Part shown: in pieces, positions 1 through 7,169 of the stretch
Layout: the number at the start of each line of letters is the position of its first letter
Position numbering within the stretch: position 1 is the first letter of the stretch
IMG/VR virus record: IMGVR_UViG_3300042898_004347
Location: 64,001 to 128,000 of that record
Strand: one strand, 5' to 3'
Length of the DNA stretch: 64,000 bases
From: a virus
Translations under genes and position numbers: made by a program
Notes under the pieces: model-generated
Databases searched by the model: none
What the model was told of the DNA's origin: nothing
The model's input: only the letters and a program-made list of their open reading frames with translations

Positions 1-222
1 AGATGGTCTCGCTTTTATGACGAGTGTAACACTTAGCGAGAATCCGTGTTATCTACTCGATCACAGTTTTTAGGCTGCGAGTGGCATTTCTTCGGCGAAA
101 CCGAAGAAGTTGCTGAGGGCTTTATTAATGCCGTTTAACTTTTTACCAGTTTTTAAAAGGTGTCCGGAGAACCTTGCTTGCTTACTATAAGTCTATTACT
201 GAGTCGAATCCAGTACAGGCCC
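1..222 (-). ncRNA. ssrA: tmRNA (5' part; 3' end lies outside the window)
   Basis: Minus strand begins GGGCCTGTACTGGATTCGAC, the typical tmRNA 5' TLD. Tag ORF 132->70 reads GINKALSNFFGFAEEMPLAA-stop and follows an A-rich ...AAGTTAAAC resume context. Confidence 0.93.
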
Positions 223-317
223 ATAAATTTAAAAGAACGAAATTCAATTGTTTAATCCGTCCACGTTCACCGCGTAGCCCAAATCCCTTTTTGAAAAAGG
301 ATACAGTTAAACAAAAT

Positions 318-391
318 TGGATGCTGGGGATGGAATTGAACCATCAGCTCCGCGTTATGAGCGCGACGAGTTACCGTTACTCTACCCGGCA
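318..391 (-). tRNA. tRNA-Met(CAT), probably initiator type
   Basis: Cloverleaf, anticodon loop CTCATAA, GTTCAAT T-loop, encoded CCA. Confidence 0.85.
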
Positions 392-400
392 ATAAAATGA

Positions 401-805
401 ATTTGGGAGGGTTAATGATTACCTCCATCTAACAATTGTGTTTTCAGTTATTCAGTCATATGGTGCCGTCGCACCTTAATAGTCCGCTTGTCATTGTATT
501 TCAGGCTTACAAGACTATACCTCTGGTTGCTTAGGTTGGCCGACCCAAGTTTTCAGCGTAGTACCTTACTTACTTACACATTGTAGAACTGAGTGATGTT
601 CTTCACACCACCCATGCGTTAGCCCCATTAGAAAGGCTTTCTTCCGCCACAAAAATTTCTCTCATGTTACGGCAACGTCAGCATACAGTCCCGACCAGTG
701 CCTATTCCACTATTATCGAGATTTTACAACTGTTGCAGACCGTGGTGACAATAGGTTCGTGAAACCAGTTGCCGCATGAGAGTCCAAGGTGATCAAACCT
801 TGGAA
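401..805 (-). ncRNA. Large structured ncRNA, GOLLD-like candidate
   Basis: About 400 nt without an ORF. Nested inverted repeats: CTCTCATG..CGGCAAC 659-676 with 768-782, CCAAGGT/ACCTTGG 784-803, GGTGC/GCACC 462-475. Has its own promoter and boxA-like element and sits next to tRNAs. Confidence 0.65.
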
Positions 806-838
806 AGTATTTAAAAGAACGAAATTGACTATGGTACA

Positions 839-867
839 ATCATACACATGTCACATCAAAAGTAAAC
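839..867 (-). promoter_or_regulatory. T4-type early promoter GTTTAC-N17-TATGAT
   Basis: Minus strand GTTTAC (867-862) and TATGAT (844-839). Confidence 0.7.
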
Positions 868-879
868 AACAAAATGTGA

Positions 880-1503
880 TTATGGCATATATGTTTTACA
901 TTCATCTAATGATAAAATTATCTTTAAATTGGGCATAAGTTTTTTAATAACATCTAATTTTGTTTTTTGAACATTCGCCGCGTGCGGATTTTTAGGATCG
1001 AGATATATGTCATGATCCGGCAGATAAAAATCAGGAAAATAATTATGAGTTCTACCATCAATCATTACATATGAAATAGGAACTTTGGGACGAATCCAAT
1101 TGATTCCTATTTCATCCAACCGCATTGCTAGAATTTCTTCCCAGGATGAATCTAAAGTGACAATAGTTCCATCTTTCTTTGTATATTTTCTTATAGATCT
1201 AACTAAACGTCTATGTTTTGATGCTAGTGCTTTTTGACTCATTAATGCCTTACTTTCAGGGCTATGAGTTTTTCCTAAATTTGGACTTGAATAATCGACA
1301 TTATCATATTTCCCATCAGCATGAGCTTTTTTAATTCCAGCAATACGCTTTGCTTTAGCTTCAGGAGTGCACATTTGAGTGCAGTTGTTACTCATTTGAT
1401 ACGAAGATCGTTTTGGGTTTTCTTTACACCACCTACTATGATTTGCTTTATTAGCAGTTGATAGACCTTCAAAATCCTTTTTACAGTATTTACATTTAAA
1501 CAT
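880..1503 (-). CDS. Free-standing homing endonuclease (Zn-finger + NUMOD3 + PD-(D/E)XK/TnsA-like domain)
   Basis: CKYC..H..C N-terminus, GKTHSPESKALMS NUMOD3-like motif, DSSWE...YFPDFYLP...YLDPKN catalytic motif; AT-rich. Confidence 0.8.
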   Translation of the reverse strand: MFKCKYCKKDFEGLSTANKANHSRWCKENPKRSSYQMSNNCTQMCTPEAKAKRIAGIKKAHADGKYDNVDYSSPNLGKTHSPESKALMSQKALASKHRRLVRSIRKYTKKDGTIVTLDSSWEEILAMRLDEIGINWIRPKVPISYVMIDGRTHNYFPDFYLPDHDIYLDPKNPHAANVQKTKLDVIKKLMPNLKIILSLDECKTYMP

Positions 1504-1516
1504 ATTTTATAGAATT

Positions 1517-1591
1517 TGGTGCGTCTACCAAGACTCGAACTTGGAACAGGAGCTTAGAAGACTCTTATGATAGCCGTTTCACCATAGACGC
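1517..1591 (-). tRNA. tRNA-Arg(TCT)
   Basis: Cloverleaf, loop CTTCTAA, CCA end. Confidence 0.88.
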
Positions 1592-1600
1592 TTATATGTT

Positions 1601-1608
1601 TATTTATA
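1601..1608 (-). promoter_or_regulatory. T4 late promoter TATAAATA
   Basis: Exact gp55 consensus upstream of tRNA-Arg and the endonuclease. Confidence 0.7.
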
Positions 1609-1613
1609 ACAAT

Positions 1614-1648
1614 GAAGATTTCTGTCCTATCCGTTGAACGATCGAGGC
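1614..1648 (-). pseudogene. 5' half of a tRNA-Arg, truncated in the anticodon loop
   Basis: GCCTCGATCGTTCAACGGATAGGACAGAAATCTTC: acceptor 5' strand, D-arm and anticodon stem ending CT-TC, then unrelated sequence. Confidence 0.8.
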
Positions 1649-1652
1649 AGAA

Positions 1653-1727
1653 TGGAGCGGAAAAAGAGACTCGAACTCTCAACATCTTCGTTGGCAACGA
1701 AGTGCTCTACCATTGAGCTATTTCCGC
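1653..1727 (-). tRNA. tRNA-Gly(GCC)
   Basis: GCGGAAA acceptor, loop TTGCCAA, TCCA end. Confidence 0.93.
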
Positions 1728-1748
1728 GTGGAGTATAAATACATTCCT

Positions 1749-2168
1749 ATGTACCAATATTCTTGCAAAATTAATAAAGTGATTGACGGCGATACTGTTG
1801 AGATCGACCTCGACCTCGGATTCAATATCGTTCTTGCTGGCCAACGAGTCAGAATGGTTGGAGTAGACACTCCTGAGTCCCGTACTGCTGATAAAGAAGA
1901 AAAGGCTCGAGGCCTCTTATCAAAGAAGAAACTTGCTGAAAAACTTCCAGCGGGTTCCTATCAAAAGATCAATACTCAGAAACCCGGAGCAAATGACGAT
2001 AAGTTTGGCCGTATTCTCGGTATCTTCATCCTGGAAGATGGAACAAATGTTAACGAGTGGCTCATCGAGAACAATTACGCGGTAAAATATCTTGGCGAGA
2101 ATAAAGAACTCGTCCAAGAAGCCCATGCAGCAAATAAGAAAATTCTTATTCGCCGTGGCGAACTTTAA
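1749..2168 (+). CDS. Thermonuclease (SNase-like) family nuclease
   Basis: VIDGDT, VRMVGVDTPE, DKFGRIL motifs. True start is probably MYQY at 1749, after TATAAATA at 1734-1741. Confidence 0.9.
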   Translation: MYQYSCKINKVIDGDTVEIDLDLGFNIVLAGQRVRMVGVDTPESRTADKEEKARGLLSKKKLAEKLPAGSYQKINTQKPGANDDKFGRILGIFILEDGTNVNEWLIENNYAVKYLGENKELVQEAHAANKKILIRRGEL

Positions 2169-2171
2169 GCC

Positions 2172-2420
2172 TTAGTAGCCCACAGATACCATGCGGCAAG
2201 ATGTCGCAGCGGTAATTGTAGAAAGGGGTGACTTTTCGAGATAGAGAACTTCACCCGGAGCAATCGTCACTGTGGTCGTGGCGGCGTCTGCAGTCGTAAC
2301 CGTAAGAAGTACCGCTGTGCCGTTGTTATTATAAACGCGTACGAGTGAGGCGGATCCGATAGTTGATGCTGTTGAAACTGCAGCGTCTGTTCCCTGAAGA
2401 TTGAGAATTGTTGAAATCAT
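2172..2420 (-). CDS. Small late protein (possibly virion)
   Basis: Thr/Ala-rich beta-type ORF; TATAAATA at 2446-2453. Confidence 0.7.
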   Translation of the reverse strand: MISTILNLQGTDAAVSTASTIGSASLVRVYNNNGTAVLLTVTTADAATTTVTIAPGEVLYLEKSPLSTITAATSCRMVSVGY

Positions 2421-2457
2421 TGAATTTTAGGATTAAGGTGTAATCTATTTATATGAA

Positions 2458-2535
2458 TGGTACCCACGGTGGGAGTCGAACCCACAGTTGAACACATTTT
2501 AAGTGTGTTGTGTCTACCAATTCCACCACGAGGGC
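2458..2535 (-). tRNA. tRNA-Leu(TAA), short variable region
   Basis: GTGGAATTGGTAGACAC Leu-type D-arm, loop CTTAAAA. Confidence 0.88.
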
Positions 2536-2545
2536 ATAACATAAA

Positions 2546-2620
2546 TGGTACCACTACGGGGAATCGAACCCCGATTACTTGGATGAAAACCAAGTGTCCT
2601 AACCGTTAGACGATAGCGGC
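2546..2620 (-). tRNA. tRNA-Glu(TTC)
   Basis: Cloverleaf, loop TTTTCAT, CCA. Confidence 0.92.
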
Positions 2621-2625
2621 AAAAT

Positions 2626-2699
2626 TGGCTCCCCGACCAGGTTTCGAACCTAGACTAGATGAGTCAAAGTCATCTGTGCTACCATTACACAATCAGGGA
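2626..2699 (-). tRNA. tRNA-Gln(TTG)
   Basis: Cloverleaf, loop CTTTGAC, GCCA. Confidence 0.92.
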
Positions 2700-2702
2700 A
2701 AA

Positions 2703-2779
2703 TGGTGGACCCGGTGGGATTTTAACCCACGATCTAGGGATTATGAGTCCCTTGCTTTAGGACACTAAGCTACAAGTCC
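2703..2779 (-). tRNA. tRNA-CAT, probably Ile2 (lysidine type)
   Basis: Loop CTCATAA; body resembles ileX-type tRNAs; atypical T-loop TTAAAAT. Confidence 0.75.
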
Positions 2780-2785
2780 TTAAAA

Positions 2786-2860
2786 TGGCTGGCAAAGTAG
2801 GACTCGAACCTACAACCCTCGCATTAACAGTGCGATGCTCTGCCATTGAGCTATATGCCA
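2786..2860 (-). tRNA. tRNA-Asn(GTT)
   Basis: Loop CTGTTAA, GCCA. Confidence 0.92.
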
Positions 2861-2864
2861 AAAA

Positions 2865-3095
2865 TTATCCGTCGTTGCCAATGGCACTTACGGGACAGCC
2901 CTCGAGGGCTTCCATACACATGTCAATGCCTGCTTGTGTTGTGGGTTGAGTATGTACATATGAAAAGCCGCCATCTTCTTCACGAGTAAAGAAGTCTGGA
3001 GCAGTTTCACGGCAAAGGTCGCAGTCGATACACTGAGTGTCGACATAAAACTTCCCTGCTGCGTTCTGTGAATATCTATCCGTATTGTTTGCCAT
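2865..3095 (-). CDS. Monocluster ferredoxin
   Basis: CIDCDLC...CP motif. Start MANN at 3095, because the upstream in-frame part overlaps tRNA-Pro. Confidence 0.92.
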   Translation of the reverse strand: MANNTDRYSQNAAGKFYVDTQCIDCDLCRETAPDFFTREEDGGFSYVHTQPTTQAGIDMCMEALEGCPVSAIGNDG

Positions 3096-3117
3096 AATGT
3101 ATTTACGATTTGATAAT

Positions 3118-3194
3118 TGGTCGGGGCGATAGGATTCGAACCTACGACCTTCTGGTCCCAAACCAGACGCTCTACCAAGCTGAGCTACACCCCG
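3118..3194 (-). tRNA. tRNA-Pro(TGG)
   Basis: CGGGGTG acceptor, loop TTTGGGA. Confidence 0.94.
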
Positions 3195-3199
3195 AGAAA

Positions 3200-3319
3200 T
3201 TACTTCTTCAGTTTAGACTGAACGACTTCAACTGCAGCATCAACCTTTGCTTTGTTTTTGCGAGCAACAAGAAGACCAGCAACGAAACCGACAATGAGTG
3301 CGAGGAGTAATGAGAACAT
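3200..3319 (-). CDS. 39-aa single-TM late protein (MFSLLLALIVGFVAGLLVARKNK...)
   Basis: Hand translation; hydrophobic N-terminus and basic tail; TATAAATA at 3353-3360. Confidence 0.7.
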   Translation of the reverse strand: MFSLLLALIVGFVAGLLVARKNKAKVDAAVEVVQSKLKK

Positions 3320-3367
3320 ATGTTTATTGAGTTGAGGTTAACCGTACATATCTATTTATATGTAAAA

Positions 3368-3445
3368 TGGCGGGATGGACGGGACTCGAACCCGCGACCT
3401 TCTGCGTGACAGGCAGACGCTCTAAACCAGCTGAGCTACCACCCC
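3368..3445 (-). tRNA. tRNA-Asp(GTC)
   Basis: Loop CTGTCAC, GCCA. Confidence 0.94.
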
Positions 3446-3529
3446 TAAAGTTTCACACAGCCATTATTGCCATTGATGTAAATCAAGAGGACTACTGTGT
3501 ATGTTAAATTATTTGAATAGATGTAGCTT

Positions 3530-3902
3530 TGCTTTATATGACCACACTTCAGCGAGTTTCTTATTTACGCATAAGCTCCAACACGTTTAATGTTTCCCAA
3601 TAAACGTACTGTTATGAACTCAGAGGCTTTTCGTTACTTCCATGTTTTTCCGCTGACGGTTAGACCCCGTGCTCGTACCGAAGATGGAAACAATCTTCTA
3701 CATTCCGAGCTGCTATTCAAAATTGGATCCTTCTGCCATACAAGTCTTCCAGAACATTTCCAGAAGATGAATGCACTTGTATGCGTTACACTCTTAAACC
3801 CCCTAAAGGAACGCAACCTTTTAAATATGTGATTGCCCAGTTTCTTAGCAACATGGAGCTTTACCTTAGCGCCGGCGAATGTAACGGTCTGCATAAACAC
3901 AG
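3530..3902 (-). ncRNA. Large structured ncRNA of unknown class
   Basis: Terminal 5'/3' helix plus multiple internal helices (see findings); lies between tRNA-Trp and tRNA-Asp. Confidence 0.55.
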
Positions 3903-3909
3903 AAGAAAT

Positions 3910-3984
3910 TGGCACGGATGGAGGGAATCGCACCCTCATAAGGCAGTTTTGGAGACTGCTGCACTACTAATGTACCACATCCGT
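3910..3984 (-). tRNA. tRNA-Trp(CCA)
   Basis: Loop CTCCAAA; atypical D and T loops. Confidence 0.85.
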
Positions 3985-4066
3985 AAAAATTAAAGCAGCG
4001 GTAACCTAATCCGCGGATGGACGAACCGATTCCAGGGTTCAAACATGACCCATACTTTAAAATAAA

Positions 4067-4144
4067 TGGGGCGATCAACGGGGCTTGAACCCGTAACCCC
4101 GAAAATCACAATCTCGTGCTCTGGCCAATTGAGCTATGATCGCC
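4067..4144 (-). tRNA. tRNA-His(GTG)
   Basis: Loop TTGTGAT, G-1:C73 pair, CCCA end. Confidence 0.9.
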
Positions 4145-4149
4145 GTAAA

Positions 4150-4226
4150 TGGAGCGCCAGACAGGGATCGAACCTGCATGTGACTGTTTTGCAAACAGAA
4201 GTTTAGCCTTTCAACAACACTGGCGC
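4150..4226 (-). tRNA. tRNA-Cys(GCA)
   Basis: Loop TTGCAAA, U73 discriminator. Confidence 0.85.
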
Positions 4227-4232
4227 TTAAAA

Positions 4233-4308
4233 TGGTAGTAGCGGTGGGAATTGAACCCACATAAAAGAGCTTATGAAACTCTTGCCTTGACCAATCGACC
4301 TCGCTACT
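4233..4308 (-). tRNA. tRNA-Met(CAT), probably elongator
   Basis: Loop TTCATAA, CCA. Confidence 0.82.
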
Positions 4309-4431
4309 GTAAATTAATTATTCGGTCGGAACTTCAATCGAAGGTCTTATCGACCCGCGCGGCTCACTAAGCCGTCCTTCACGTCGTTAAGTGGTACGAC
4401 AACACGGACTTCTACCGTTAACCGAATAAAA

Positions 4432-4507
4432 TGGTGGGAGCTTCTGGTATCGATCCAGATTCTTGCCGTCTTCAGCGGCACGTGAGCACCTGCTTCACCA
4501 AACTCCC
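4432..4507 (-). tRNA. tRNA-Phe(GAA)
   Basis: Loop CTGAAGA, CCA. Confidence 0.85.
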
Positions 4508-4512
4508 TAAAG

Positions 4513-4588
4513 TGGTAGACCCGGAAGGATTCGAACCTTCAATACAACGTTCGTAGCGTTGCGTGATAATCCGTTTCACTACGGGTCT
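4513..4588 (-). tRNA. tRNA-Arg(ACG)
   Basis: Loop CTACGAA, CCA. Confidence 0.92.
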
Positions 4589-4695
4589 ATAAAAATGAGT
4601 AGTACCGATTGTTCCGAGCACGGTTACCTGTTGTTCAACATACTGAATGATAACACCGACTCCTGTTTTACGAACAACTGGATTTCTACTCAAAA

Positions 4696-4781
4696 TGGTG
4701 GGCACGCTTGGACTCGAACCAAGGGTTATCCGAAGAGGGGACATTTACAGTGTCCTGCAATAGCCGCTATGCGACGCGCCC
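4696..4781 (-). tRNA. tRNA-Tyr(GTA)
   Basis: Loop CTGTAAA, long variable arm. Confidence 0.92.
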
Positions 4782-4837
4782 GAAAAATTGTCATTTGAGT
4801 CAACCTCAATTTCGCCAATGACGTGGCGTTTGCAAAA

Positions 4838-4912
4838 TGGAGCGGTATCCGGGTAACGATCCCAGAACTCAAGTTTGGAAAACTCGCGTGTATCCATTAA
4901 CACCTATACCGC
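4838..4912 (-). tRNA. tRNA-Gly(TCC)
   Basis: Loop TTTCCAA, TCCA. Confidence 0.88.
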
Positions 4913-4917
4913 AAAAC

Positions 4918-4991
4918 TGGTGCCTTCGACAAGAATCGAACTTGTGACTAGCGCTTATCAAGCGCTGGTTATACCGTTTAACTACAAAGGC
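4918..4991 (-). tRNA. tRNA-Ile(GAT)
   Basis: Loop TTGATAA; 5' end overlaps the stop codon of the upstream endonuclease. Confidence 0.9.
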
Positions 4992-5583
4992 TTTTAATAT
5001 ATTCCACATTTATATCTTTATTTAAAAGAATGATTATTTTTACAGAATTCTGTTTTGCTGCTAATTGTATTTTTTCTGCATCCAAAATGGCTTTATAATC
5101 GTTTTTAGGATCTAAATATAAATCATATTCTGTTAGATAGAAATCAGCAAAATATCTTTTATTGTTGTATTTTAATGATTTCGGTCGAATCCATTTTATA
5201 TTCAATTCATTTAATAATGAACTACATCTTAATTCATATGTACTCTGTAGTGTAACTTCATTACCATATGAATCATTTACTTTAAATTTTTTACTTCTTC
5301 CAGCCAAAGGTTGGTAACCACCTAAACCTCGATCTTTTGCTATTTTTGATAATAGTGATTTAGTTTCTTGAGTATGCGCAGTTCCTGTACCGGGACCAGT
5401 TTTTGGTCTAAAACATCTAACATCGGACAATACAGTTTTACCTTTATTCCATGCAACCCTCTCTACTTTAGGTTTAATGACTTTAGGTTTATCGTGCCAC
5501 TTTAAATGACGATTGAATGCGAAAAGCGATACGGCATTTCCACATTTAGGACAAATAGATGTTGTTGTTTTACCTTTGGGCAT
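4978..5583 (-). CDS. Free-standing homing endonuclease (Zn-finger + NUMOD3 + PD-(D/E)XK), paralog of 880-1503
   Basis: CPKC..H..H, AWNKG, HTQETK, QSTYE...YFADFYL...YLDPKN. Start MPKG at 5583 after TATAAATA at 5589-5596; AT-rich. Confidence 0.8.
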   Translation of the reverse strand: MPKGKTTTSICPKCGNAVSLFAFNRHLKWHDKPKVIKPKVERVAWNKGKTVLSDVRCFRPKTGPGTGTAHTQETKSLLSKIAKDRGLGGYQPLAGRSKKFKVNDSYGNEVTLQSTYELRCSSLLNELNIKWIRPKSLKYNNKRYFADFYLTEYDLYLDPKNDYKAILDAEKIQLAAKQNSVKIIILLNKDINVEYIKSLCS

Positions 5584-5601
5584 TAATCTATTTATAGAGG
5601 T

Positions 5602-5634
5602 AGACGATGCTCTAACCAACTGAGCTACTAGACC
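5602..5634 (-). pseudogene. 5' half tRNA (Ile-like), truncated at the anticodon loop
   Basis: GGTCTAGTAGCTCAGTTGGTTAGAGCATCGTCT followed directly by the late promoter; no complementary 3' acceptor strand downstream. Confidence 0.8.
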
Positions 5635-5639
5635 GAAAA

Positions 5640-5729
5640 TGGCGGAAATAGAAGGATTCGAACCTTCGGGGCTTTTGAGGACCCGAGACTTTAGCAAAGT
5701 CTTGCCTTAAACCACTCGGCCATATTTCC
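5640..5729 (-). tRNA. tRNA-Ser(GCT)
   Basis: Loop TTGCTAA, long variable arm. Confidence 0.93.
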
Positions 5730-5734
5730 TAAAT

Positions 5735-5824
5735 TGGAGGAAGGGGTGGGATTCGAACCCACGGTCGTTTTTAGGCGACTCAAGTTTTCAAGACTAGCGC
5801 CTTAAACCACTCAGCCACCCTTCC
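5735..5824 (-). tRNA. tRNA-Ser(TGA)
   Basis: Loop CTTGAAA, long variable arm. Confidence 0.93.
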
Positions 5825-5830
5825 TTAAAA

Positions 5831-5906
5831 TGGAGCCCTCGGACGGGATCGAACCGACGACAACCAGTTTACAAAACTGGTGCTCTACCAACTGAGCTAC
5901 AAGGGC
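5831..5906 (-). tRNA. tRNA-Thr(TGT)
   Basis: Loop TTTGTAA, TCCA. Confidence 0.93.
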
Positions 5907-6224
5907 GAAATTGAATCCCACCATGCACCTAGAAGCATTGCTGCTTTCACGGATGAACCCGACATTCAGTGCAGGTAGGAAAATTGGAAAGGTAACGATA
6001 GCTCAGTGTTCTGGCTGCATATCGGTGCAGACGGCATTTCGTTTTTATCTAACACTTAGACCTTAAAAGAGCCCGGCAATTTATTTAAAGACGTCCGGGG
6101 CTCGTCTATTTTTATTTGAAAAAAGAACTAATTTTACCCCTCTCAGCTTGTGCTGGTTTGGATACCCGTTATCGGACGTTTGGACTCCTTAAAGCCGGAG
6201 TCTGGCAGTGAAACTGAAAGTGAT

Positions 6225-6257
6225 AAAAAAACCTCTGAGCTTTATGGCCCAGAGGTT
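6225..6257 (-). terminator. Attenuator terminator upstream of the tRNA array
   Basis: AACCTCTGGGC-cataaa-GCTCAGAGGTT followed by a U tract. Confidence 0.85.
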
Positions 6258-6290
6258 AAAGATAATTTCGATTTTAGATCGACCTTATTT

Positions 6291-6383
6291 TTAACCCCTG
6301 TAACCTGTTCCGCGTACGGACCAGAACAAGCCACAGCTATGTGGATTTTGTTCTGTATCTGATTTAATCTGTACCGTAAGCAT
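6291..6383 (-). CDS. Putative attenuator leader peptide MLTVQIKSDTEQNPHSCGLFWSVRGTGYRG
   Basis: Hand translation, 30 codons; its 3' end CAGGGGTTAAA is complementary to the 5' arm of the terminator. Confidence 0.75.
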   Translation of the reverse strand: MLTVQIKSDTEQNPHSCGLFWSVRGTGYRG

Positions 6384-6401
6384 TTGAAGTGTTTGTTGAT
6401 T

Positions 6402-6443
6402 TATTTATAGGACTATCATACTTAGTTTTGGTACAAAGTAAAC
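6402..6443 (-). promoter_or_regulatory. Tandem early (GTTTAC-N17-TATGAT) and late (TATAAATA) promoters of the leader/tRNA operon
   Basis: GTTTAC 6443-6438, TATGAT 6420-6415, TATAAATA 6409-6402. Confidence 0.75.
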
Positions 6444-6455
6444 AACAAAGCGCAA

Positions 6456-7169
6456 TTAGTGCATAAAAAGATATGGTTTCCATTCCTCGCGGATACCCAT
6501 ATCCTCGGGGATTTGAACGCCGATCTGGACACGGTTCTTTGGAACCACTTCCTTACCATTAATGTCAAAATACGGGAAAATGTTGTCCTTGGCAGCATTA
6601 CAGTCGCGGCAGGCAAGAACAAGGTTGAACCCGTCATTGGTACCACCCTTTGACTTGGGATGCACGTGATCCTTGGTGGCAACGCAGAAAGGTATCTTTT
6701 TGAGGCAGTACTGACAGGTGCCCTTATAGATGCTGTAAAGACTCCGAAGTGAGGTTTGCTGACCACGACGAACAGTATGTCCGAAGTGAGTAGTGCAGAC
6801 AACGATGGTCGGAATTGCCCATTGCTTTTCTTCGCCACTGATACGGTCCGGAGCGGAACGCAGACATGGCTGGTTGTCAAAGAGTTCTATGGTGTTCTTC
6901 GACCACGAATAACCGTCATTGTCCTCACGACCGTCCCATGGAATTGTGTTACCACTCGCGTCGATACCGTGAGCCCTACCATTCATCATGTGACGCATGC
7001 ACGCACGGGCCGTGAAGAAGGCATAGGCTTGGTAGGAACCGTCGAGCACCAGTGTGGTACGCGCAGAAGCATCAACAGGAGTCAATACATTAACCTGTAA
7101 TTGATTTAACAACTGAAGTGAAGCCTTTTCGTGGTACGTTGTATTTGCGAGCATTAGAGTAAGATTCAC
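6456..7169 (-). CDS. HNH endonuclease (McrA/HNH_5-like); start uncertain
   Basis: CQYC...TKDHVHPKSKGG...NLVLACRDCN. Confidence 0.88.
   Translation of the reverse strand: MNLTLMLANTTYHEKASLQLLNQLQVNVLTPVDASARTTLVLDGSYQAYAFFTARACMRHMMNGRAHGIDASGNTIPWDGREDNDGYSWSKNTIELFDNQPCLRSAPDRISGEEKQWAIPTIVVCTTHFGHTVRRGQQTSLRSLYSIYKGTCQYCLKKIPFCVATKDHVHPKSKGGTNDGFNLVLACRDCNAAKDNIFPYFDINGKEVVPKNRVQIGVQIPEDMGIREEWKPYLFMH

Follow-up and report, generated by a model that had tools for sequence, protein, structure and literature searches.

The window analysed here, that is, the whole stretch of 64,000 nucleotides (nt), corresponds to bases 64001-128000 of a viral contig of 140,053 bp, and near its beginning it contains a compact arrangement in which the first half of a gene for a transfer RNA (tRNA), tRNA-Arg, is followed by a complete tRNA-Arg(TCT) gene and by an open reading frame (ORF) for a putative nuclease (Table 1). 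The preliminary description of this DNA, made from the sequence letters, took the arrangement for a tRNA-replacing endonuclease cassette, and its component parts are found as it gave them: the half gene stops within the anticodon, a copy of TATAAATA, the T4 late-promoter consensus, lies in the spacer behind it, and the complete tRNA that follows is identical to the half at only 23/35 positions over their common part, so that it was correctly labelled as divergent. The half can be parsed into the 5' strand of the acceptor stem (7 nt), 2 nt, a D-arm (with a 4-bp stem that includes one G-T pair and a loop of 8 nt), 1 nt, the 5-nt strand of the anticodon stem and the terminal C-T-T-C. Taken alone it scores weakly (10.2 bits in nhmmer, E 0.21 in 390 kb), and homologous halves occupy the equivalent site in other loci. 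The nuclease gene has a guanine-plus-cytosine (GC) content of 32%, against 43% for the genome, and 3' of its stop codon there is a sequence that was read as a sigma-70-like promoter. Between this gene and a tRNA-Met gene lie about 255 nt without an ORF (window 403-656, minus strand), which resemble sequences of four other viral contigs (L157-L160), with 76% identity over 259 nt, and thus form a conserved non-coding element, for which no match was found in Rfam.

Table 1. Features of the tRNA-Arg(TCT) arrangement and of its nuclease, in window coordinates
Feature	Position	Strand	Remarks
tRNA-Gly(GCC)	1727-1653	-	4 nt upstream of the half tRNA
5' half of tRNA-Arg, 35 nt	1648-1614	-	ends C-T-T-C, after anticodon position 35
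Relic, tRNA positions 1-26 (acceptor 5' strand and D-arm)	1623-1648	-	26/26 match to the intact tRNA-Arg(TCT) of L315
tRNA positions 27-35 (anticodon-stem 5' strand and C-T-T-C)	1614-1622	-	end is the left junction; recurs in L020 and L042
Spacer, 22 nt	1592-1613	-	contains T4-type late-promoter motif
TATAAATA, late-promoter motif	1608-1601	-	9 nt ahead of the spare tRNA
Intact tRNA-Arg(TCT), CCA encoded; proposed spare (rescue) tRNA	1591-1517	-	ARAGORN; Rfam tRNA, 55.6 bits
Nuclease ORF, 207 codons, full length (207 amino acids)	1503-880	-	13 nt downstream of the spare tRNA
N-terminal CCHC zinc-finger-like motif (C4, C7, H22, C26)	1426-1494	-	(nearly) invariant alignment columns
NUMOD3-like DNA-binding helix, residues 73-89	1237-1287	-	Pfam PF07460, 20.0 bits, borderline (cut-off 20.4)
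Predicted PD-(D/E)xK nuclease domain, residues 100-207	883-1206	-	AlphaFold2 model and fold search
Candidate catalytic residues E122; D158; D169; K171	1138-1140; 1030-1032; 997-999; 991-993	-	invariant

The complete tRNA-Arg(TCT), called the spare tRNA in what follows, lies well above the Rfam cut-off of 29 bits and is the only AGA-reading tRNA of the genome, in which AGA makes up 15% of the phage arginine codons. Its cloverleaf is retained in the cargo tRNAs of the window type from 14 relatives, where both partners have changed in a compensatory way at 15 of the 21 pairs, which shows that this tRNA is under structural constraint. Both its function in the phage and its immunity to the nuclease are presumed.

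The nuclease protein

The nuclease belongs to a very populous group of unnamed proteins. A word-indexed search recovered 758 homologs, nearly all of them full-length and covering 99-100% of the query, and an exhaustive profile search gave 3329 clusters at 50% identity with E<=1e-3 (1481 with E<=1e-10). The gene call on the record (P0001, 164 amino acids) begins at Met44 and drops the zinc-finger motif; judging by the homologs, the form of 207 residues is the correct gene model. All 22 aligned members of the family, the paralog of the Ile cassette described below among them, have residues E122, D158 and D169-P170-K171 unchanged, and the alignment displays the catalytic signature of the PD-(D/E)xK enzymes (an acid, then (D/E)-x-K on the following strand, plus a helix glutamate).

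An AlphaFold2 model of the protein (mean predicted local distance difference test score, pLDDT, of 88.7) was compared with known structures. With residues 100-207, VIA-align 2 placed TnsA first (Z 8.9, root-mean-square deviation 3.4, 114 residues aligned), followed by Vsr (Z 7.0), VRR-NUC (6.5) and Bax1 (6.5); nearly all of the top matches are PD-(D/E)xK nucleases, and the homing enzymes I-Bth0305I (Z 4.8) and I-Ssp6803I (Z 3.9) come lower. In Foldseek, TnsA reached a probability of 0.99 with an E of only 0.02, nothing was found at E<=0.001, and the fold assignment is thus that of VIA-align 2 only. A sequence profile search of solved structures with the nuclease returned nothing meaningful. 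The signature and the modelled structure point to a member of the PD-(D/E)xK superfamily with a predicted restriction-endonuclease-like alpha/beta core. Two other affiliations were considered and rejected: Phage_endo_I (PF05367, T7 endonuclease I) was matched with 23.8 bits (E 3.9e-5), under its cut-off of 29.1, and T7 endonuclease I ranked low in the fold searches, while a GIY-YIG nuclease of the SegB type is at odds with the predicted fold and with the Pfam and PHROG matches, which contain no GIY-YIG family (those in PHROG are endonuclease and resolvase families). Among GenBank phages, tblastn gave eight weak matches, the top one (44%) being a protein of Aeromonas phage phiWae14 annotated as hypothetical, whose gene adjoins tRNA-Leu genes of the opposite strand, and no cultured model phage for the nuclease was obtained from this search.

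Related loci, split tRNA genes and an empty site

Eighty loci with nuclease homologs on viral contigs, together with the window, were reduced to 66 non-redundant loci. A complete tRNA-Arg(TCT) gene lies within 200 nt upstream of the nuclease gene, on the same strand, in 34/66 of them, in another 12/66 the equivalent upstream place is taken by a tRNA-like gene of non-canonical form that also has a TCT anticodon, and a tRNA-Arg(TCT) gene overlaps the nuclease stop codon in 6/66. All of the 46 tRNA-Arg(TCT) genes in these loci are within 250 nt of the nuclease gene, and none of the 358 tRNAs at a greater distance is Arg(TCT) (binomial P ~6e-81), so the association is specific to the anticodon. 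An exact TATAAATA precedes the spare tRNA or the ORF by at most 70 nt in 30/66 loci, and where a spare tRNA comes before the ORF the motif is mostly 7-12 nt ahead of that tRNA. The non-canonical cargo genes of the 12 loci, which were missed by ARAGORN, have the TCT anticodon loop with an ordinary acceptor and T-arm, lack an ordinary D-arm and contain a long extra region (L004, L007, L010, L016-L019, L021, L032, L036, L066, L073 and L076, upstream of the nuclease gene in each case); these genes may encode tRNAs rewired so as to evade the nuclease.

Halves of the type seen in the window were searched for in all loci with a tRNA-Arg(TCT) profile and nhmmer. Thirty-four orphan matches of the 5'-half type were found, 31 of them within 260 nt upstream of a nuclease gene and on its strand, and these 31 end at profile positions 31-36 (29 at positions 34-36). 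The homologs were also examined for a lack of association with pairs of half and full tRNAs, the outcome that would have spoken against the preliminary description, and these 31 loci, with the 46/46 count given above, show the opposite. In nine of the 31 loci a 3' half is present too, at most about 60 nt past the stop codon and mostly within 10 nt of it; since these 3' halves begin near position 43-44, the stop codon TAG itself covers tRNA positions 43-45. The acceptor strands of the two halves pair 7/7 in L023, L036, L056, L058 and L061, and reading of the sequences adds L004 and L068, which gives at least seven matched loci of the nine. This complementarity identifies the two halves as parts of one gene, with the promoter, the tRNA and the nuclease gene in between. 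Where both halves exist, tRNA positions 36-42 are gone. With them the split gene has lost the last base of its anticodon and the anticodon-stem 3' strand; it is therefore dead, and the insert is not an intron. The positions of the junctions suggest that the nuclease cuts inside the anticodon. For the split tRNA of L058, no intact allele turned up in a search by exact pattern.

In L070 a tRNA-Arg(TCT) gene with matching acceptors has a 49-nt insertion in its anticodon loop (L070:2810-2932) and is immediately followed by a partial 5' half, TATAAATA and a nuclease gene that has no cargo tRNA; this insertion may be a scar or a mini-insert. In L024 (and also in L025) a hybrid tRNA follows the nuclease gene (L024:3615-3686), whose 5' part overlaps the end of the ORF and does not pair with its own 3' acceptor; the latter matches the upstream relic 5' half, suggesting nested or successive insertions.

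The replacement of a tRNA gene can be followed directly in one pair of alleles. Using a gene that flanks the cassette of L056 as a probe, a contig (L242) was recovered that matches the contig of L056 (here L243) to either side of the cassette, with 99.98% identity in 4437 nt and 99.9% in 1741 nt. L242 contains one intact tRNA-Arg(TCT) gene (L242:4411-4487) and no nuclease gene, and in L243 a segment of 16 nt of that tRNA (positions 27-42) is replaced by 755 nt, which comprise a foreign remnant of an anticodon stem ending in C-T-T, a spacer with TATAAATA, a spare tRNA and the nuclease gene. Identity between the two contigs picks up again in the variable loop. These borders imply crossovers in the D-arm and in the variable loop or T-arm, with the stem remnant carried along with the cassette. 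The pair thus provides presence and absence at a single site in near-identical genomes, as expected of a homing gene, and the distribution of the cassettes is equally in keeping with such a gene. Pairs of cassettes that are 77-99% identical have no similarity, or far weaker similarity, in the 640 nt on either side (for example, L058 and L064, whose cassettes are 88% identical, or L001 and L002, with 83%). Among 80 loci related to L001 through a flanking gene (63-100% protein identity), the nuclease gene is present in one, L001 itself, and in several of the others the same genes are followed by an intact tRNA-Arg(TCT). The distribution within lineages is thus sporadic, and in L243 the anticodon stem-loop of the target, the presumed recognition site, is replaced.

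The window contains a second cassette, with an ORF at 5583-4978 that is 33% identical to that of the Arg cassette (BLASTP E 5e-19) and shares with it the motifs quoted in the preliminary description. Also as described there, the tRNA precedes the ORF in the Arg cassette and follows it in the Ile cassette. The reversed order, with a half, the promoter, the nuclease gene and a tRNA that overlaps its stop codon, is seen at window 4978-5634 and in L162 and L164-L241. Searching with a single sequence gave only two loci of this paralog, and an alignment-based search gave 61 non-redundant loci, in which the tRNA overlapping the stop codon is Ile(GAT) in 24, Thr(TGT) in four, Thr(GGT), Ile(TAT) and Gly(TCC) in three each, and Val(TAC) in one; the Thr, Gly, Val and Ile(TAT) tRNAs accompany the more distant members of the clade. 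Upstream there are 5' halves matched in isotype, followed by a TATAAATA-like motif, and a strict parse identified such a half in 24 of 39 loci, a few of the parses being spurious. The halves of Ile(GAT) mostly end directly after the anticodon, and those of Val, Thr and Ile(TAT) after two anticodon bases. One locus of this clade, L205, has kept a 3' half whose acceptor matches 7/7. At the level of the family, the Arg(TCT), Ile(GAT), Thr, Gly and Val loci support the earlier proposal of anticodon-targeting nucleases that travel with rescue tRNAs of the matching isotype.

Interpretation and alternatives

These observations make it probable (about 0.8) that window 880-1622 is a copy of a mobile cassette that breaks a tRNA-Arg(TCT) gene and replaces it, and that window 1623-1648 is what remains of an invaded gene of this kind. 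During a mixed infection, the nuclease would cut an intact tRNA-Arg(TCT) gene at the DNA level, within its anticodon stem-loop or next to it, and the break would be repaired from the genome that bears the cassette, with the D-arm of the relic on the left and the variable loop and T-arm on the right serving as homology arms. The outcome would be that the anticodon stem-loop of the target is exchanged for about 0.75 kb, as can be seen in the L242/L243 pair, which kills the gene and destroys the target site. Decoding of AGA would be maintained, since the cassette supplies a tRNA for this codon with stems unlike those of the target, and that tRNA is presumably not cut. The T4-type motif and the spacing suggest that the promoter serves a single late transcript of tRNA and nuclease gene, from which processing would release the tRNA.

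A wider interpretation is possible, which we hold at somewhat less than an even chance: that the cassettes amount to a natural, splice-free gene drive of the home-and-rescue type acting on phage tRNA genes, and that they form a large PD-(D/E)xK family (thousands of clusters at 50% identity) whose clades are each directed at a single anticodon (Arg TCT, Ile GAT, Ile TAT, Thr, Gly or Val), disrupt the tRNA gene already present within its anticodon stem-loop and install a tRNA of their own that is immune to cleavage, using the universally conserved D- and T-arms as portable homology arms. If so, they would be a main motor of the turnover of tRNA genes and of their spread among phages, and the need to avoid self-cleavage would explain the odd tRNA-like cargo genes.

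Regarding the origin of the copy in the window, the relic falls into two parts. Its positions 1-26 agree completely with the intact tRNA-Arg(TCT) gene of viral contig L315 and divergence begins at position 27, as in L243; this part is probably a left homology arm. Positions 27-35, together with the junction (9-10 nt), recur in the cassettes of L020 and L042, and this part is read as a remnant of an older target that now moves with the cassette. The top overall matches of the relic are other relics, not intact genes, and intact tRNA-Arg(TCT) genes with its type of D-arm occur in at least 120 viral contigs, with a related nuclease gene within 1.5 kb in two of the 80 contigs of this kind that were examined. 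The nearest relatives of the locus, L081 and L082 (found via the neighbouring SNase-like gene), match the window at 88-90% of nucleotides from 2464 to 1651, the end of tRNA-Gly, and again from tRNA-Met (395-314), the two matching parts being separated in these relatives by about 490 nt of unrelated DNA. Since other DNA stands there between matching flanks, the block appears to have entered the lineage of the window, or to have left those relatives, as a unit. The junction of tRNA-Gly and tRNA-Arg in the window had no match in a scan of metagenomes, so that no empty site was found for this exact genome. Because there is no 3' half, because the whole block is absent from the closest relatives and because the last 9 nt travel with the cassette, the half is probably not a freshly broken gene of this genome; the copy was probably inherited as relic plus cassette, or was recombined in together with its left relic. 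The idea of a tRNA-replacing cassette in the preliminary description is supported by the insertion seen in L242/L243. The nuclease gene of the window is intact and may still be active.

Several of these observations weigh against the proposed replacement. A search of the whole 140-kb genome for the complementary acceptor strand found no matching 3' half in a tRNA-like context, and L081 and L082 have neither the cassette nor a tRNA-Arg gene at the locus, so that the victim need not have been a tRNA-Arg of the window genome itself. The closest homolog of the window nuclease is only 69% identical, and there is therefore no sign of a recent movement of this copy. Half sequences of one class recur across several loci, which means that some relics are inherited with the cassette and not made anew. 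A single clean pair of empty and occupied sites was found, the halves of L064 have mismatched acceptors (as judged by reading the sequence), and the spare tRNA has the same anticodon loop as the target, though it is presumed to be left uncut.

Part of this would be expected if the nuclease were an ordinary free-standing homing endonuclease, similar to SegB, that lies beside a resident tRNA-Arg gene, the half being a by-product of segmental duplication driven by the nuclease, or of recombination, within the tRNA array and not the remnant of an invaded target, and the tRNA not a cargo at all. SegB of T4, encoded between tRNA-Arg and tRNA-Ile, promotes the inheritance and amplification of neighbouring tRNA genes (PMC2988022; PMC2330249; PMC13096335), and a window without a 3' half, whose nearest relatives show no target at the site, would fit such a gene. 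However, a half that agrees with the adjacent tRNA at only 23/35 positions is not a recent duplicate, a tRNA and a nuclease gene are found between the halves of one gene in nine loci (at least seven of them with complementary acceptors), and in L243 promoter, tRNA and nuclease gene were inserted together into a tRNA gene that is intact in L242, all of which makes this explanation quite improbable. It is hardly credible that the interrupted tRNA is still functional, either through removal of the insert in the manner of an intron or through joining of the halves in trans. Relic halves do often retain perfect stems, and bacterial group I introns with homing endonucleases are reported to occupy tRNA anticodon loops (PMC3984707), but a group I intron with an encoded endonuclease was rejected for the present element: Rfam gave no match to any intron family at E<=0.1 in window 1-7000, the insert has fewer than 60 nt besides the tRNA and the ORF, which would not accommodate a ribozyme core, and loci with both halves lack tRNA positions 36-42, the window having no 3' half at all. 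ARAGORN in its intron mode likewise detected no split tRNA in the genome.

An explanation that overlaps with the replacement cassette and does not exclude it is that the nuclease has been domesticated for the benefit of the phage, either by excluding the tRNA regions of competitors or by spreading and amplifying tRNAs resistant to host anticodon nucleases, with the half as a leftover. A benefit of this sort is attributed to SegB in T6 (PMC13096335), and it would agree with the large size of the family and with the intact state of the window gene, which has all the invariant residues despite the loss of one homology arm. Nonetheless, the sporadic presence within lineages (1/80 among the relatives of L001), the foreign GC content and the unrelated flanks are typical of selfish spread, and domestication is judged unlikely.

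Genome setting and known systems

The contig, with a GC content of 42.8%, has 23 tRNA genes and one transfer-messenger RNA (tmRNA) gene, all on the minus strand, and a set of T4-like core genes (a major head protein of PHROG 138, a family B DNA polymerase, an SbcC-like nuclease subunit, helicases and ribonucleotide reductase). TATAAATA occurs 14 times in the window, against 2.7 predicted from shuffles. Among GenBank phages no close relative of window 1-6000 was found, the matches being limited to short stretches of tRNA. The tmRNA gene lies at the edge of the window (1-222, minus strand, continuing to genome position 63854), where its Rfam match is truncated; ARAGORN, run on the whole genome, gives a tag peptide that ends in LAA. 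A weak tRNA-like match between tRNA-His and tRNA-Met (window 4155-4224, minus strand; Rfam 32.4 bits, barely over the cut-off) was not called by ARAGORN. On the strand opposite to the tRNA array there is a gene for an SNase-like nuclease (window 1713-2168, plus strand; PHROG 452, E 2e-32), whose listed TTG start overlaps tRNA-Gly; because a TATAAATA at 1734-1741 shortly precedes an in-frame ATG, this ATG is probably its true start.

The closest known case is SegB of T4. It is a free-standing endonuclease whose gene has a predicted late promoter and lies between those for tRNA-Arg and tRNA-Ile (PMC2988022), it recognises a T-psi-C motif and drives the inheritance of the T4 tRNA region (PMC2330249), and it associates with tRNAs of all isotypes without isotype preference (PMC13096335). 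The two systems are alike in that a free-standing nuclease gene lies next to tRNA-Arg in a T4-like tRNA cluster and that the DNA of tRNA genes is targeted. They differ in that SegB is a GIY-YIG and not a PD-(D/E)xK enzyme, in that its target is the T-psi-C stem-loop common to many tRNAs and in that it sits between genes; in the SegB texts searched for truncated or partial tRNA genes, no mention is made of a split target gene, a relic half or an isotype-matched spare tRNA. The F-Tfl enzymes of T5 are also encoded within a phage tRNA cluster. They are HNH enzymes and so belong to a family different from that of the cassette nuclease. Our search of the literature, whose journal coverage is incomplete, found no paper on pairs of half and full tRNAs with a nuclease gene, or on a nuclease cassette that breaks a tRNA gene and supplies its replacement.

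I-Ssp6803I, from the group I intron in the tRNA-fMet gene of Synechocystis (PDB 2OST), targets the anticodon loop of a tRNA gene for homing and has the PD-(D/E)xK fold in common with the cassette nuclease, which it resembles at the level of the fold only (Z 3.9), with no sequence match; it is encoded by its intron and the tRNA is restored by self-splicing, in contrast to the cassette, which uses a spare gene. The proteins that gave the structural matches to residues 100-207 (TnsA, Vsr, VRR-NUC, Bax1 and T7 endonuclease I, with Z from 8.9 to 6.4) do not home into tRNA genes and lack the N-terminal part with the zinc-finger and NUMOD3-like motifs. Elements with an integrase also insert into tRNA genes, bringing a replacement 3' end, by which tRNA function is kept and a partial copy is left at one border. 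These, however, employ site-specific recombinases and duplicate only the 3' part, whereas the cassette would depend on its nuclease and on homologous repair, with a whole tRNA and a break in the anticodon region.

To our knowledge, homing endonuclease genes persist in needed genes only by means of self-splicing introns or inteins, or else by residing beside their target. The cassette would be a third solution, in which the element enters the gene, kills it and supplies a replacement. This would explain the nuclease genes and tRNA fragments that litter the tRNA arrays of phages, the movement of tRNA genes between unrelated phages and the presence of a foreign type of tRNA-Arg(TCT) as the only one of this phage. 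The family could in addition be a source of compact nucleases, with a specificity that appears to follow short, well-defined sequences of tRNA genes. The same logic underlies the synthetic drives known as cleave-and-rescue or home-and-rescue, where the loss of a needed gene to the nuclease is made good by a cleavage-immune copy on the element itself. Those drives are engineered, based on Cas9 and used in animals, and the cassette, guided by a protein and acting on the tRNA genes of phages, would be their natural counterpart.

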